Below are positions 26,828 to 34,038 of a stretch of DNA of 34,038 nt, in pieces. Position 1 is the stretch's first letter; each line of letters opens with the position of its first letter. Where the stretch lies: the IMG/VR virus record IMGVR_UViG_3300032312_000083, positions 1 to 34,038 of that record. The stretch is one strand, 5' to 3'. This stretch comes from a virus. Lineage: Duplodnaviria; Caudoviricetes. A program made the position numbers and the translations under genes. Below the pieces are notes generated by a model that was given only the letters and a program-made list of their open reading frames with translations, was not told the origin of the DNA and did not search any database.

Positions 26828-26857
26828 GGGGGTCCAAACAGTAAAGTGAGGTACATT

Positions 26858-28665: not shown

Positions 28666-28706
28666 GCGAAAGCCGGGGCGACATCCACCCCGCCCCGGCA
28701 AGTAGC
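28666..28706 (+). promoter_or_regulatory. Structured RNA element upstream of the polymerase gene (9-bp stem on a loop-E/bulged-G-like motif)
   Basis: GC-GAAA-GCCGGGGCG-(10 nt)-CGCCCCGGC-AAGTA-GC; no U-tract. Confidence 0.6.
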
Positions 28707-28724
28707 GGAAGAGTGAGAACTTCT

Positions 28725-30680
28725 ATGTCTAAATTATGGATTGACTTTGAAACGCGCAGCCGGTGCGACTTACGCAGCCGCGGCGTTTACAATTACGCGC
28801 AGGACGCCAGCACCGACGTGTTGTGTATGTCATACGCATTTGATGACGAAAATGTGCGGACGTGGCTACCCGGTGAGCCTTTCCCGCAGGACGTCCGCGA
28901 CCACACAGGGCTAGTCTACGCGCACAACGCAGCGTTCGAGCGCCTGATATTCTGGTATGTCCTTCAGGTAAACTTTAAGCTGGAGCAGTTTTATTGCACC
29001 GCAGCACAAGCCCGCGCCAACTGCGCGCCGGGCAGCCTTGAGGATGTGGGCCGCTTCGCTGGCGCGACCATGAAGAAAGACCACCGCGGCGGACAACTGA
29101 TCCGCGCGCTGTCCATCCCGCAATCAGACGGCACGTTTCGCCAAGACGCGAAGCTGATGCAGGAGATGGTTGACTATTGCGAACAGGATGTGCGGGCCAT
29201 GCGGGCCATCACGCTGGCGCAGCGTCCGCTGTCGGCTGAAGAATTGGCTGACTATCATGTCAACGAGCGCATCAACGACCGCGGCGTGTTGCTTGACCGG
29301 CCATTGGCGCTGGCAGCGGTGCGCTACGCCGAAGCTGAATTGGCAGAGATACAGACCATTGTCGCAGAAGTGACGCACGGCGAGATTAAGTCCGTCCGCA
29401 GCCCAAAGATGAAGGATTGGGTATTGGCTAGGGTAGGGCCGCAAGCCCTTGAACTAGCTACGGTTTACAAAGACGGGGTAGCTAGGCTATCCATTGACAA
29501 GAACGTGCGCGCTAATCTGCTCACGTTAGCGGGGGAGAATGCAGATGAAGTGCCGTCGGAAGTTGCGGAAGTCATCCAGTGCGCGGACGATCTGTGGGCA
29601 TCGTCCGTCGCTAAGTTCCAACGCGCCGCAGCTCTTGCTGACGCGGAAGATTATAAGGTTAGAGGAGCATTTGTGTTTGCTGGAGGGAGTGCTACTGGCC
29701 GTGCTTCGTCATATGGACTACAAGTTCACAATTTCCCAAGAAAGTGTGCCGGAAACCCGGCATTAGTTAGGCAGGCTATGGTCCGCGGACACAGGATTGT
29801 CCCCGACCATGGCGCCCGCGTGACTGACGTGCTGAAAGGTATGCTGCGCCCTGCGCTGATGGCCGGCAAAGGCAAGCGCCTTGTCGTTGCTGACTGGGCC
29901 GCAATCGAAGCGCGCGTCACGCCGTGGGCATCTAACAGCACCTTTGGCGGACGCAAGCTGGACATCTTTGCCAAAGGCGAAGACGTTTACAAGCATAACG
30001 CTATGGCGACCTTCCATGTCGGCTATGATGACGTTGACAAAGACCAGCGCCAGATTGGCAAGGTGCAAGAGTTAGCCTGCGGCTTTGCAGGCGGCGTCGG
30101 CGCGTTCGCCAGCATGGGCCGCATCTACGGCTTGGTCATGTCAGAGAGCGACGCCAAGCGCATGGTTGACGCATGGCGCAGGGCTAACCAGTGGGCCGTG
30201 CCTTACTGGTCTGGCCTTGAAGAAACTTATATGCGCGCTATGCGGAACAAAGGACGTGAGTTCACTGTTGGCCGCGTTACATATTTATTTGATGGACTGC
30301 ATCTTTGGTATGCCCTTCCGTCTGGCCGTGTGTTATGTTACCCTTTCGCCCGTTTCAACGAGAAAGGCGACCTGACCTACGCGAAGGCTTCTTGGAAGCC
30401 AGCCGCCGACGCGAAGGAGTGGCCGAGGGCGCGGCTGTGGCGTGGTCTGGCGTGTGAGAACATCACGCAGGCTATCGCTAACGACTTGCTGCGCCACGCC
30501 TTGCGACAGTTGGACGATGTAGTCTTACACATCCACGATGAAATAGTCTTGGAAGTGCCGGAAGCAGATGCAGAGGCCGCAGCAGCGCGGCTGGTGCAGA
30601 TTATGTGTGAGCCGCCATCATGGGCAACAGGGCTACCCCTGAACGCTGAAGTGGCAGTTATGGAACGTTATGGAAAATAA
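28725..30680 (+). CDS. polA: Family A DNA polymerase with 3'-5' exonuclease
   Basis: Exo DFET and HNAAFE; motif A DWAAIEAR, motif B RQIGKVQELACGF, motif C HIHDE. Confidence 0.95.
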   Translation: MSKLWIDFETRSRCDLRSRGVYNYAQDASTDVLCMSYAFDDENVRTWLPGEPFPQDVRDHTGLVYAHNAAFERLIFWYVLQVNFKLEQFYCTAAQARANCAPGSLEDVGRFAGATMKKDHRGGQLIRALSIPQSDGTFRQDAKLMQEMVDYCEQDVRAMRAITLAQRPLSAEELADYHVNERINDRGVLLDRPLALAAVRYAEAELAEIQTIVAEVTHGEIKSVRSPKMKDWVLARVGPQALELATVYKDGVARLSIDKNVRANLLTLAGENADEVPSEVAEVIQCADDLWASSVAKFQRAAALADAEDYKVRGAFVFAGGSATGRASSYGLQVHNFPRKCAGNPALVRQAMVRGHRIVPDHGARVTDVLKGMLRPALMAGKGKRLVVADWAAIEARVTPWASNSTFGGRKLDIFAKGEDVYKHNAMATFHVGYDDVDKDQRQIGKVQELACGFAGGVGAFASMGRIYGLVMSESDAKRMVDAWRRANQWAVPYWSGLEETYMRAMRNKGREFTVGRVTYLFDGLHLWYALPSGRVLCYPFARFNEKGDLTYAKASWKPAADAKEWPRARLWRGLACENITQAIANDLLRHALRQLDDVVLHIHDEIVLEVPEADAEAAAARLVQIMCEPPSWATGLPLNAEVAVMERYGK

Positions 30681-30690
30681 GGAGCAAGCG

Positions 30691-33036
30691 ATGAGTGAGA
30701 GTCGCACGAAGTTCATAGACTATATAGTCGGGTTGGCCGCTGATACAGTGGGCGAAACGGCTTTGTTAGTGCGTCAGAAGCCCGTGCATGGCGATGACGG
30801 CAAACCAATCTATCACGCAGACGGCGCGCCAAAGGCGACGTTCCCTGCGTTCCTGCCTGAAAAGGCCCGCATCAAGGACGGCGAGGCATGGTATGTCAAC
30901 ACTGGCTCGTTCGTTGTTGACCGCTTTGTAGATGGCAAGCCCGCTGCCAAGTCCAGCAACGTCGAATATGTCCTGTTCATGATGCTAGATGATATCGGCA
31001 CTAAGTCCAAGACGCCGCCGCTTGCGCCGACATGGATACTGGAAACCAGCGAAGGTTCGTTCCAATGGGGCTATGCGTTCAACGAGCAGCCAAAGAAGGG
31101 CGACTTCTGCGCTGCCGTCAAAGCTATCGCAGCCGCTGGCTACACCGACCCCGGCGCGACCAACGCTGTCCGCAACTGTCGCATTCCCGGCAGTGTCAAC
31201 CTAAAAAGCGGGCGCGGTAATTTCCCTGCGCGGCTGGTCGAGTTCCACCCAGAACGTGAATACACAATAGAACAAATCTGCGAAGCGTTAGGCGTCACAC
31301 CCGAAGAAGGCGACACAGCCGACTTTAGGACTGTGCAACTGCGCGACACTGGGCATGACAACGTCCTGACATGGTTAAGCGAAAACAACCTAGTCCTTAG
31401 CGCACCTAACAACGACGGCTGGTGCGGCATCGTCTGCCCTAACCACGCCCACCACAGCGATGGCATGATCGAGGCGCGTTACAAGCCGCTCGACCGTTCG
31501 TTCTGCTGCTATCATGGACACTGCCAAGACCTTGACAGCCGCACGTTCCTTGATTGGGTTGCCGCTAACGGTGGGCCACAGGCAACGCCGGGCTTGCGGG
31601 ATGAACTAATCGCAGAGCGCATGGCGTCGATGATGGATAAGATTTCCCCTACGGAAGCTTTTCCTGACGAAGCCGCAGCGCGTGTGCGTGAGGTCGAAAA
31701 GAAAGAAGCAGGACGGCTGGAACAAAGCGAGTGGTTCGAGCGTTTCGCTTACATACAGTCTGATGACTGCTATTTCGACATGGTCACACGTCAAGAGATA
31801 GCCCGTAACGTCTTTAACGCCTTGTTTCGTCACGTTGACTGTCGCTCCATCCACAAGAAGACACAGCGCATCCAAGCGTCCGTCTACTACGACGAGCGTC
31901 GGCAGGACCGTGGCGCACCTGCGCTGGCAGCCGTGACGTTTGCCGCCGGTGATGACGTGCTGGTAACGCGCGACGGCTTGGTCTATGGTAACAGGTGGAC
32001 AAACGCCCGCCCTGACGTGTCAGAAAGCGACAAGATTGCCGACCATGACGTCGAGCCTTGGCTTGAGCATTGCCGCAATCTAATTAAAGATGACAGGGAC
32101 TTGGACCACATCCTAAACGCTATGGCGTTCAAGATACAGAACCCACGCGTCAAGATTAACCACGCCATCCTGATTGGCGGCGACGAAGGCGCGGGCAAGG
32201 ATACCATCTTTCAGCCGTTCCTGTGGGCGCTGGGCGGCGGCAACTGGCGCAACAGGTCAGTCATCGAAGCTGGCGGGCTGGACAGTCAGTGGGGCTACGC
32301 GCTGGAAGCTGAAGTTGTCATCTTGAACGAGTTAAAGGAGCCAGAGGCGCGTGAACGTCGGGCCATGGCTAACAAGCTGAAACCCATGATTGCTGCACCG
32401 CCTGAAACGCTGTCGGTCAACCGCAAGGGTATGCACCCTTACGAGTTGGTCAACCGCCTCATGGTGCTTGCCTACACGAACGACTCGCTGCCCATCACGC
32501 TGCCCACACAAGACCGTCGTTGGTTCTGTGTGTGGACACACGCGCCGCGCATGACAACGCCAGCAGCCGACGCGCTGTGGGGCTGGTATGAGACAGGCGG
32601 TTATGAAAAGTGTGCCGCATGGCTGCATCAGCGCGACGTGTCATCGTTCAATCCATCTGCGCCGCCGCCAGTGACCGAATGGAAGCTGAACATGGTCGAG
32701 CATGGCATGAGCGTAGCAGAAAGCTATCTGGTCGAGTTGATGCGGAACAAGGCGGCGGTGTTTGCCAATGGCGTCATTGGTGGTCCGTTCCACCGTATTT
32801 GCGACGCGCTGGCTATCAACGTGCCTGCGGGCGTAAAGATACCACCCGCTGCGTTACTTCATGCGCTGAAAGAGGCAGGCTGGGTTGACATAGGTCGCGT
32901 CCATTCTGTCGAACACCCGACAAAGAAACACATTTTTGCCGCGCCGGACGTCATTAAAAAGAACAGCAAGTCAGAATTGCGCCGCATGGCAGAAGAACTG
33001 CCGAAGATAAATATACCCGGTGTAAGCAAGAATTGA
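30691..33036 (+). CDS. Primase-helicase (RepB-like AEP primase, Zn finger, SF3 helicase)
   Basis: MLDD, ETSEGSFQWGY, RIPG; CPNHAHH...CYHGHC; Walker A GDEGAGKD, ILNE, DRRW; SD AAGGAG before ATG 30691. Confidence 0.9.
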   Translation: MSESRTKFIDYIVGLAADTVGETALLVRQKPVHGDDGKPIYHADGAPKATFPAFLPEKARIKDGEAWYVNTGSFVVDRFVDGKPAAKSSNVEYVLFMMLDDIGTKSKTPPLAPTWILETSEGSFQWGYAFNEQPKKGDFCAAVKAIAAAGYTDPGATNAVRNCRIPGSVNLKSGRGNFPARLVEFHPEREYTIEQICEALGVTPEEGDTADFRTVQLRDTGHDNVLTWLSENNLVLSAPNNDGWCGIVCPNHAHHSDGMIEARYKPLDRSFCCYHGHCQDLDSRTFLDWVAANGGPQATPGLRDELIAERMASMMDKISPTEAFPDEAAARVREVEKKEAGRLEQSEWFERFAYIQSDDCYFDMVTRQEIARNVFNALFRHVDCRSIHKKTQRIQASVYYDERRQDRGAPALAAVTFAAGDDVLVTRDGLVYGNRWTNARPDVSESDKIADHDVEPWLEHCRNLIKDDRDLDHILNAMAFKIQNPRVKINHAILIGGDEGAGKDTIFQPFLWALGGGNWRNRSVIEAGGLDSQWGYALEAEVVILNELKEPEARERRAMANKLKPMIAAPPETLSVNRKGMHPYELVNRLMVLAYTNDSLPITLPTQDRRWFCVWTHAPRMTTPAADALWGWYETGGYEKCAAWLHQRDVSSFNPSAPPPVTEWKLNMVEHGMSVAESYLVELMRNKAAVFANGVIGGPFHRICDALAINVPAGVKIPPAALLHALKEAGWVDIGRVHSVEHPTKKHIFAAPDVIKKNSKSELRRMAEELPKINIPGVSKN

Positions 33037-33062
33037 CAACTGATATCACGCGATGATATACT
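33033..33062 (+). promoter_or_regulatory. Near-consensus sigma70 promoter driving a small RNA
   Basis: TTGACA(33033-33038)-18-TATACT(33057-33062) with extended -10 TG; no ORF downstream on this strand. Confidence 0.8.
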
Positions 33063-33066
33063 GCTT

Positions 33067-33133
33067 GGGTTAGTAATGCTCTACTGACCCTTTTGGAAAG
33101 CCCCCGGTGTCTCACTCCACCGGGGGCTTTTTG
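33067..33133 (+). ncRNA. Putative ~66-nt two-hairpin antisense small RNA
   Basis: Promoter; hairpin 1 GGGTTAGTA-ATGCTC-TACTGACCC; hairpin 2 AAAGCCCCCGGTG-TCTCACTC-CACCGGGGGCTTT plus U-tract; loops complementary to several translation-initiation regions. Confidence 0.75.
33097..33133 (+). terminator. Rho-independent terminator (possibly bidirectional)
   Basis: 13-bp perfect stem followed by TTTTTGTTGTTT, between convergent genes. Confidence 0.85.
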
Positions 33134-33137
33134 TTGT

Positions 33138-33431
33138 TTACGCTGCTAGTTTGCGTTTGCCGGGTAACACTACCAAGCGGGTGTTGACTTTGGTTATGGG
33201 GTGTTCGTCTTGCTTATCCCCGTGCATACCTTCGTCATCCCAATGGACATCATCGTTGCCAGTAACATCCCAGACGTTGACATAAATCTCAGCGCCCTTC
33301 ATGTTAAAAATCTGACCCCAATCGTTCTTTACTTGCCTTACGACACTGGCGATGGCTTTTTCTGGATCAGGGTTTCTGGCCCAGCTTGATCCGCCGCCGA
33401 GTAAAACGATAGCTATGTAGTCGTGTGTCAT
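33138..33431 (-). CDS. Hypothetical early protein, 97 aa
   Basis: SD AAAGGA; own consensus promoter; no recognisable domain. Confidence 0.8.
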   Translation of the reverse strand: MTHDYIAIVLLGGGSSWARNPDPEKAIASVVRQVKNDWGQIFNMKGAEIYVNVWDVTGNDDVHWDDEGMHGDKQDEHPITKVNTRLVVLPGKRKLAA

Positions 33432-33452
33432 GCTCTACTTTCCTTTTATCAA

Positions 33453-33521
33453 TGTCAAAGAACCATCAAGGCGGTTTCCCGTCTTGATGGCTCATTATAG
33501 CATAGTTTGAGGGTATGTCAA
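33453..33521 (-). promoter_or_regulatory. Strong sigma70 promoter with a boxB/boxA-like leader
   Basis: TTGACA(33521-33516)-16-TATAAT(33499-33494) with TGn; GAAA-capped hairpin 33490-33463; GGTTCTTTGACA at 33464-33453. Confidence 0.75.
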
Positions 33522-33590
33522 TAACTTTCTTTCTTTTGTTTTCAAGGACTTATGAGAAAGTTATTTTTATTGTCTTTTGTTTTCAGGTAG

Positions 33591-33791
33591 TTATTCGTCC
33601 TTCAATGCCTTTTCGGCGTCTTCGATCAATTCGATGGGCGGGTAGCGTAGATAGGACACATGGTCTTTGCCTATCACGCCCAGAAATTCCAGATATTCCA
33701 TCAGGCGGTAGGCTAAGGTTTCGCCTGCGCGTTCGATGTATCGTTCGGGCAGTGCCAATTCGTCGTCCTCATCATCGTCATAGTAAGTCAT
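33591..33791 (-). CDS. Hypothetical acidic protein
   Basis: MTYYDDDEDDEL...; ATGA coupling with the upstream gene at 33788-33791. Confidence 0.7.
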   Translation of the reverse strand: MTYYDDDEDDELALPERYIERAGETLAYRLMEYLEFLGVIGKDHVSYLRYPPIELIEDAEKALKDE

Positions 33792-33970
33792 TCTGGTTTC
33801 CAATCTTTAGGGTAGGGGACAGACTTATAACTAGTCTTGTAAAGTCTGCCGTTTTCGTAATGTTCGGTTACTGTCGAGCCATCATCATTAAGGACGGCGG
33901 CAAGGTCGCCAAGCAGGTGCAATGGTCGCCCCGTCTTGGGGTCCATGCGATATTTGATTTTGTCGGTCAT
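33788..33970 (-). CDS. Hypothetical protein
   Basis: MTDKIKYRMDPKTGRP...; starts just after the upstream stop (GTG 33976 is an alternative start). Confidence 0.6.
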   Translation of the reverse strand: MTDKIKYRMDPKTGRPLHLLGDLAAVLNDDGSTVTEHYENGRLYKTSYKSVPYPKDWKPE

Positions 33971-33972
33971 GG

Positions 33973-34038
33973 TCACATCCATCTCGTTATGAAGGTTACG
34001 CCGCCCACAGTGCGGCACTTGAACGCCTTGCCGTTACG
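33973..34038 (-). CDS. 3' end of a small basic protein (partial; ...RNGKAFKCRTVGGVTFITRWM)
   Basis: Open frame from the window edge to TGA 33973, coupled to the next gene. Confidence 0.5.
   Translation of the reverse strand, partial: RNGKAFKCRTVGGVTFITRWM

Follow-up and report, generated by a model that had tools for sequence, protein, structure and literature searches.

Does the small-RNA locus that follows the primase-helicase gene of this phage serve only the gene that converges on it, or a wider set of genes? The window, by which we mean the whole analysed stretch of 34,038 nt, holds the RNA locus on the plus strand and, facing it, an open reading frame for a 97-amino-acid (97-aa) protein on the minus strand (33138-33431), a convergent layout that was confirmed. 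An earlier note had proposed that the RNA blocks translation of the 97-aa gene while the transcript of that gene sponges the RNA and de-represses replication genes, so that the pair decides between lytic and carrier states; a type I toxin-antitoxin pair was offered as an alternative.

The window covers most of the genome of an uncultured podovirus-like phage, with genes for a terminase, a P22-type portal and capsid, lysis proteins, a helicase, an exonuclease and a PolA-type polymerase; a gene that we label as putatively single-strand-binding carries the PHROG label nucleotidyltransferase. Complete relatives measure 37-39 kb, which implies that about 3-4 kb, probably from the early region, are absent from the window. 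We left the host unassigned because a genome scan returned two MAG contigs and nothing else, the nearest records of the capsid are uncultured or labelled only Gammaproteobacteria, and a GcrA-like match fell below the cut-off.

The RNA gene and its conservation

The plus-strand locus behind the primase-helicase gene (30691-33036, plus strand) likely makes an RNA of about 67 nt, judging from its sequence signals. The 3' end of the primase gene carries a sigma70-type promoter (33033-33062, TTGACA-18-TG..TATACT), whose -35 box TTGACA overlaps the primase stop codon and whose -10 box is of the extended form TG..TATACT. It is followed by hairpin 1 (33067-33090), with the loop AUGCUC (33076-33081) complementary to GGAGCA and AGAGCA, and by hairpin 2 with the intrinsic terminator (33095-33135), whose loop UCUCACUC (33110-33117) is complementary to AGUGAG(G/A). 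The plus strand of 33067-33140 gives a two-hairpin fold of -41.1 kcal/mol (z -8.0), and the single terminator-like site in 31500-34038 lies on the plus strand. A search of the window against Rfam gave no family at the gathering score and, below it, generic terminator-like matches only.

That the RNA is a real, conserved element was borne out by its relatives, for which we kept the best 80 of 176 loci found with the primase. The whole gene, with promoter, two hairpins and U-tail, lies directly after the primase stop codon in 80/80; TTGACA is present in 79 and the extended -10 in all 80, and every one has a hairpin whose loop is of the (U)GCUC(C/U) type as well as a terminator bearing CUCACUCC, the terminator hairpin containing CTCACTCC in 80/80. 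A promoter-like site was found in 74/76 RNA-bearing versus 0/95 RNA-lacking dereplicated loci. RNAalifold on 46 RNA variants, an alignment that omitted three-hairpin forms and the subclade whose loop 1 differs, recovered two hairpins, and 12 of the 16 consensus pairs show compensatory changes; the stems vary and the loops are invariant. Both loops are likewise kept, on different stems, in a sister clade at 68-73% primase identity, where the RNA promoter is buried in the last primase codons. There, the last 45 nt of the primase (L233, L333, L332, L226, L240) encode a C-terminal tail, VA..D.KVV.IR, together with the -35 and -10 boxes of the RNA, and the promoter thus seems to constrain the peptide.

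Further out, at 54-62% primase identity, the position of the RNA is mostly taken by a plain terminator or another gene, and a model of the RNA run against 96 distant loci found no true copy (best 31.8 bits, minus-strand terminators). Several variants at this position deserve mention. A longer RNA, at L001:9180-9245 and in L004, L012, L021, L074, L098 and L101, has an extra GGTGTCGCTTTGCTGACC segment separating the hairpins; this may be a third hairpin and may hold a seed of its own. In the distant relatives L260 (10351-10415), L119, L126 and L128-L131, terminator loops after the primase stop are complementary over short stretches to the primase start of the same genome and may be divergent or independent versions of the RNA. 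Short direct repeats (TCGAAAAAAGCGTC; AAAAAACGGGAGCGTTTGCCTGC) follow the primase in the distant relatives L155, L157, L158, L175, L249, L255 and L275 and are possibly origin iterons.

In a freshwater metatranscriptome 9% of words were present, in contigs of mostly diverged relatives from which strand and ends cannot be read. Literature searches found no description of the present RNA. It may be listed as an unannotated candidate in PMC10690425; the loop sequences were absent from the supplements of that paper that were searched.

Loop complements at early and replication start sites

Both loops have complements at the starts of replication genes, all on the plus strand. The primase-helicase start region (30681-30705) has a loop-1 site, GGAGCA (30681-30686), at the Shine-Dalgarno sequence (SD) and a loop-2 site, GAGTGAGA (30693-30700), in a hairpin across codons 1-5. 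At the DNA polymerase, a loop-2 site sits at the SD in a 5-bp hairpin (28707-28724) ahead of the ATG at 28725, and the exonuclease SD AGTGAGG (26845-26851) is a loop-2 site of 6-7 nt with a stem of 3 bp only. Outside the RNA, sense-strand AGTGAG(A/G) occurs at just these three places in the window, all of them starts (exonuclease SD, polymerase SD, primase codons 1-4). The primase variant of the window, GAGUGAGA, exactly matches the UCUCACUC loop of the same genome, although G-U pairs are used in other phages that have this loop. We dropped a loop-1 match to AGCGGA in the polymerase leader after seeing no covariation by eye.

The primase site follows the RNA closely. AGTGAG lies near the primase start in 65/65 dereplicated RNA-bearing versus 3/88 RNA-lacking loci, although the RNA-bearing phages form one clade and presence or absence thus counts as a single evolutionary event; in the three exceptions the site is in an upstream hairpin. 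Primase codons 2, 3 and 5 are fixed as AGT, GAG and CGC in 64/65, an invariance equalled by only 33 of 398 conserved degenerate columns. In L241 the two sites at the primase start have been swapped, with AGTGAGG at the SD and GGAGCA in codons 4-5.

We then looked at all start sites, using genes called by a simple codon-and-SD model (which placed some starts wrongly) and then clustered. The 651 hexamers present in at least five clusters were ranked by comparing start sites of RNA-bearing and RNA-lacking relatives, and the first four, AGTGAG, GGAGTG, GGAGCA and GAGTGA, are complements of the two loops. AGTGAG occurs in 40/372 RNA-bearing versus 6/436 RNA-lacking clusters and GGAGCA in 48 versus 13, counts that are inflated by common junction modules and phage kinship, with p-values that overstate independence. 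Loop-2 and loop-1 sites mark 30 and 45 of 208 early clusters, compared with 4 and 8 of 286 control early clusters, whereas 0/95 late clusters carry either site; counted per distinct start region, 1 and 3 of 321 late genes do. The conserved unit thus appears, by sequence, to be a regulon of early and DNA-replication genes with almost no virion genes.

GGAG belongs to the ordinary SD. An ordinary terminator whose loops overlap generic SD sequences by chance might therefore be suspected, GGAG and GAGG both being SD-like and a plain terminator occupying the same place in RNA-lacking relatives. This reading hardly seems tenable and is largely refuted already: the sibling SD hexamers AGGAGA and GGAGAA show no enrichment (near the bottom of the 651), the primase site lies within codons and is under synonymous constraint, and the loops stay invariant on varying stems.

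The structure of the sites differs between the two loops. Stems of at least 4 pairs enclose the loop-2 site in 18/18 polymerase, 27/31 primase and 27/69 early variants, compared with shuffled means of 3.5, 4.0 and 9.8, and 0/200 shuffles reach the observed values. The polymerase stems vary yet stay paired (e.g., GAAG/CTTC, GGATG/CATCC, GGTTG/CAACC, GGTG/CACC); for 36 polymerase leaders, whose two types of stem lie one column apart, RNAalifold reached no consensus. The target stems are weak, at -3 to -7 kcal/mol, and a 4-bp stem is found at only 1/21 exonuclease loop-2 sites. Since the sites lie mostly in hairpin loops on variable, still-paired stems, the comparison suggests that loop 2 pairs with its targets loop to loop. 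Loop-1 sites are unstructured, 15/105 falling in hairpins versus 10.7 after shuffling.

Two side observations concern genes with loop-2 sites. A 288-aa early gene (L314:13544-14410, minus strand; Pfam GP88, E 4e-42) has the site in 11/11 members of its cluster. The polymerase leader (window 28683-28724; e.g., L215:5247, L328:5093) consists of a GC hairpin, AGTAGC and then the AGTGAG hairpin. Where methylases or other genes have inserted ahead of the polymerase, this leader stays put, and the loop-2 site thus passes to the inserted gene.

Besides L241, two groups of relatives serve as natural experiments. A subclade with rearranged genes has lost the GCUCC loop, and GGAGCA is found at 0/19 of its small-gene clusters versus 29/121 (p 0.013, with L224 binned in the wrong group); it retains loop 2 and the loop-2 sites. 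Its own loop 1, in a hairpin before the primase stop codon in L215, L218 and L236, reads ACCCCAAACC or ACCCAGC. Among RNA-lacking phages, a minus-strand terminator lies immediately upstream of the primase SD in 26/87 loci, versus 0/69 RNA-bearing loci, and a strict extended -10 lies inside the primase 5' end in 12 of these 26 versus 6/61 others. This terminator, which follows the complement of the primase SD (L172:6942-7001, minus strand; also L143, L188, L165, L134, L118, L160 and L263), looks like the end of a candidate cis-antisense RNA of about 55-60 nt, an alternative route to the same control.

We think it rather probable, on this evidence of complementarity, that the RNA is a trans-acting brake that pairs through its loops with ribosome-binding regions of many early and replication mRNAs and blocks their translation. 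Loop 2 (CCUCACUC/UCUCACUC) would kiss AGUGAG hairpin loops at the primase, the polymerase, the exonuclease and first-in-operon early genes, and loop 1 (UGCUCC/U) would pair with unstructured GGAGCA SD sites at the primase, many early genes and the 97-aa cassette. Pairing over the SD or first codons blocks initiation, and because the sites cover these positions we infer repression; the repression of replication genes that the earlier note implied is plausible, through loop 2. At 6-10 nt and -9 to -17 kcal/mol the predicted pairings are short, and with seeds that hardly vary in the loops, compensatory change between RNA and target is scarce. The host polymerase would transcribe the RNA from every genome copy, so that it builds up with genome replication; the accumulated RNA would then cap the synthesis of early and replication proteins while sparing virion genes, acting as a copy-linked negative-feedback brake and an early-to-late hand-off.

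The convergent 97-aa gene and its transcript

The match that first drew attention to the locus is exact. ATGCTCTACT occurs at 33076 and at 33430 and nowhere else in the window, and the copy on the minus strand spans the SD spacer together with the AU of the 97-aa gene's AUG, as the earlier note had described. The SD and spacer of this gene occupy 33430-33445 (minus strand), including the 10-nt loop-1 complement at 33430-33439, and are preceded by a mobile cassette (33446-33521, minus strand) made of a hairpin leader and a promoter (33521-33494) with 12/12 consensus positions, which in relatives drives at least five different cargo genes. The complement is the longest among the 40 called start regions of the window, and one as long arose in 8/5000 shuffled targets and 1/1938 window tiles of 35 nt. 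The full 10 nt are not conserved; only the 6-nt core GAGCAU:AUGCUC persists, in 13/14 distinct cassette-RNA combinations. The position after the core forms C-G in eight of the 14 combinations, U-A in two (the window and L011) and a mismatch in three, the last (L026) being without a site. The C/U variant of loop 1 showed no genome-wide covariation, and GGAGCA remains in use in U-type phages (8 G, 5 T, 0 A, with the window's own gene call excluded). Blocked translation of the 97-aa gene therefore stays plausible through loop 1, although what is conserved is the core and not the 10-nt duplex: loop 1 probably acts on the cassette start region, and the 10-nt match would be the best case of this genome, not a rule.

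The gene itself is present in 2/80 RNA-bearing relatives, the RNA being kept in 78/80 loci without it. The promoter-leader cassette is found in 14/80, to which two pattern scans added a few cases, and its cargo is of at least five types. Across 63 loci the convergent slot holds 13 gene clusters. GAGCA stands at the start of the slot gene in 10/63 (with one of these undercounted because of a mis-called start), so the expectation that relatives keep loop-1 complementarity to whichever gene fills the slot was not supported, and one rearranged subclade has the RNA with no convergent gene in 8/8 loci. A dedicated double-negative pair of sRNA and 97-aa mRNA that chooses between lytic and carrier states would account for the 10-nt match as the best of the window, for a perfect-consensus promoter aimed at the RNA from 390 nt away and for the U-A pair that replaces C-G in the window and L011. 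With the gene in two relatives, the cassette in 14, cargo freely swapped, three combinations mismatched and L026 without a site, we consider such a two-component switch very unlikely. By its distribution the 97-aa gene appears to be swappable cargo and an occasional predicted target of the RNA. In the early regions of G001-G010 (e.g., L306, L317, L321) we also observed recurring junction modules whose last bases are GGAGTGAG or GGAGCA; the cargo that each drives is unrelated.

The model of the 97-aa protein (pLDDT 88) is a soluble alpha/beta domain of small size that lacks a short hydrophobic helix. The protein has 153 unnamed relatives and no PHROG or Pfam family, and its Atlas matches stay under 0.9. 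The best PDB hit of a fold search (Z 4.3, rmsd 2.2, 59 aligned) indicates no clear family; no viral fold matched at E 0.001, and a profile search gave only designed TIM barrels. The structure prediction that the earlier note called for thus yields a fold class and no named family. It also bears on the idea of a type I toxin-antitoxin pair with this protein as the toxin, to which the convergent layout, the strong promoter and an RNA antisense to the start region would all be suited. Given a predicted soluble alpha/beta protein, an RNA that persists without the gene in 78/80 loci and many other predicted targets, we hold that idea to be extremely improbable.

The overlap of the two transcripts is better founded. 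On the minus strand the copy of the RNA locus displays a GAGUGAGA loop followed by only UUUCC, as had been claimed. A U-rich tail is present on the plus strand in 36/36 and 18/19 variants and on the minus strand in 0/36 and 2/19, whereas 50/60 RNA-lacking phages have it on the minus strand. In the stretch from the slot gene to 300 nt into the primase, 6/65 RNA-bearing versus 64/73 control loci have an intrinsic terminator on the minus strand, and the stop codon of the slot gene lies within 15 nt of the terminator stem in 57/65. Few minus-strand terminators and stop codons this close to the stem make an overlap of the early operon with the RNA likely and general; on these grounds, and in agreement with the earlier note, transcription of the early operon probably continues through the RNA locus in antisense. 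Extra GC-rich hairpins without a U-tract lie between the last early gene and the RNA in L032, L045, L035 and L057, at the 3' end of the early operon.

The same strand data speak to a reading in which the AGUGAG hairpins and GGAGCA sites are operators of an RNA-binding protein and the functional product of the locus is a minus-strand decoy. Such a decoy would show the target loop sequences, and the target hairpins do resemble translational operators, but promoter and U-tail sit on the plus strand, many pairs of hairpin 1 are G-U on the plus strand, folding favours that strand in 50/52 and 17/22 loci (imprecise windows), and the element is retained where no minus-strand operon arrives. We give this reading very little weight.

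For the trans-acting brake, convergent read-through would be an accessory step that supplies antisense and delays the action of the RNA early in infection; the rearranged subclade, with the RNA and no convergent gene, indicates that the overlap is dispensable. Read-through could also have a larger part. In a bistable switch it would sponge the RNA, while block by the RNA would lower read-through through polarity, and the RNA-high condition would be a repressor-free carrier or immune state that silences incoming relatives. Put most broadly, the RNA would be the master repressor of an abundant clade in place of a CI protein and would silence all early and replication functions by loop pairing, antisense read-through of the repressed operon would create a protein-free bistable lytic/carrier switch with superinfection immunity across the clade, and cassettes would tune it by adding antisense. 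We judge the switch unlikely, if well short of negligible, and the same goes for its broader form. Minus-strand terminators in only 6/65 loci against 64/73 controls, the flipped polarity of the U-tract (0/36 and 2/19 versus 50/60) and seeds common to the whole clade would fit it, and RNA-based immunity has precedents in P4 CI and P1 C4 (excerpts of PMC4825925 and PMC5320573). However, loss of the A-tract may simply reflect hairpin 1 taking that place, Rho could end the minus-strand transcript, and the rearranged subclade has the RNA without a convergent gene. The five complete relatives all lack a match to PF00589 (integrase) and PF01381 (HTH_3 repressor), and no ParA-type or other maintenance family was recognised among 141 accessory proteins, most of which have no family and may include maintenance genes that go unrecognised. 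The proposed decision between lytic and carrier states thus gained no support, and a carrier or immunity role for the RNA is possible.

Relation to known regulatory RNAs and significance

As read from the window and its relatives, the locus appears to have the features of a trans-encoded multi-target sRNA, namely its own promoter, an intrinsic terminator, a conserved structure and conserved single-stranded seeds complementary to several start regions. Among known systems, C4 of P1/P7 has three stem-loops, is cut by RNase P from a precursor, confers prophage immunity and acts on an antirepressor operon. The present RNA differs in having two hairpins, its own promoter and terminator and dozens of predicted targets; the promoter argues for a primary transcript rather than an RNase P-processed precursor, and the C4 Rfam model found no match up to E 5 in 32900-33700. 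The likeness is in mode of action: C4 is a small phage RNA whose two loops pair with the target mRNA and occlude the ribosome-binding site (PMC5320573, in excerpt), and here too two loops are complementary to sites at ribosome-binding sites.

P4 CI is an antisense RNA that holds replication genes off without a repressor protein (excerpts of PMC4825925); it is processed from the leader under its control and causes premature termination at two nearby sites. CI lies inside its own leader, flanked by the targets seqA and seqC, whereas the present RNA lies downstream of the operon, after the primase stop codon, and its predicted targets are dispersed start regions, 0.3-6 kb from the RNA in the window.

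RNAIII of Staphylococcus aureus is a long RNA. It is chromosomal and quorum-controlled, in contrast to a phage-encoded RNA of about 67 nt aimed at the phage's own genes. Both would act by loop pairing at ribosome-binding sites, RNAIII's C-rich hairpin loops repressing several mRNAs at the SD and two loop-loop contacts engaging rot mRNA (PMC2837412, as excerpted).

The plasmid copy-number antisense RNAs, such as repABC ctRNA (RepE/IncA), are short RNAs that limit the replication initiator (parts of PMC6090056). A ctRNA is cis-encoded opposite the initiator leader and has one fully complementary target, whereas the present RNA would act in trans through seeds of 6-10 nt on many targets, and a minus-strand terminator ahead of the primase start is present in 0/69 RNA-bearing loci; it is the RNA-lacking relatives that appear to use such a cis arrangement there. 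By analogy, the RNA would work like C4 and RNAIII and serve a purpose like that of P4 CI and ctRNA, while lacking features that define membership of C4, CI and ctRNA.

The phages that bear the RNA are a large, uncultured, freshwater group. According to the portion consulted of PMC12197685, each phage sRNA that regulates phage genes has a single gene or a few as its target, while the present short RNA seems to reach an entire temporal class, namely the replication core and dozens of swappable early genes, with two six-base codes in ribosome-binding sites as its address system. If this is true, phages with no recognisable repressor or RNA polymerase would have a post-transcriptional early-to-late transition, or a carrier state, and newly acquired early genes would come under control by inheriting a tagged ribosome-binding-site module.
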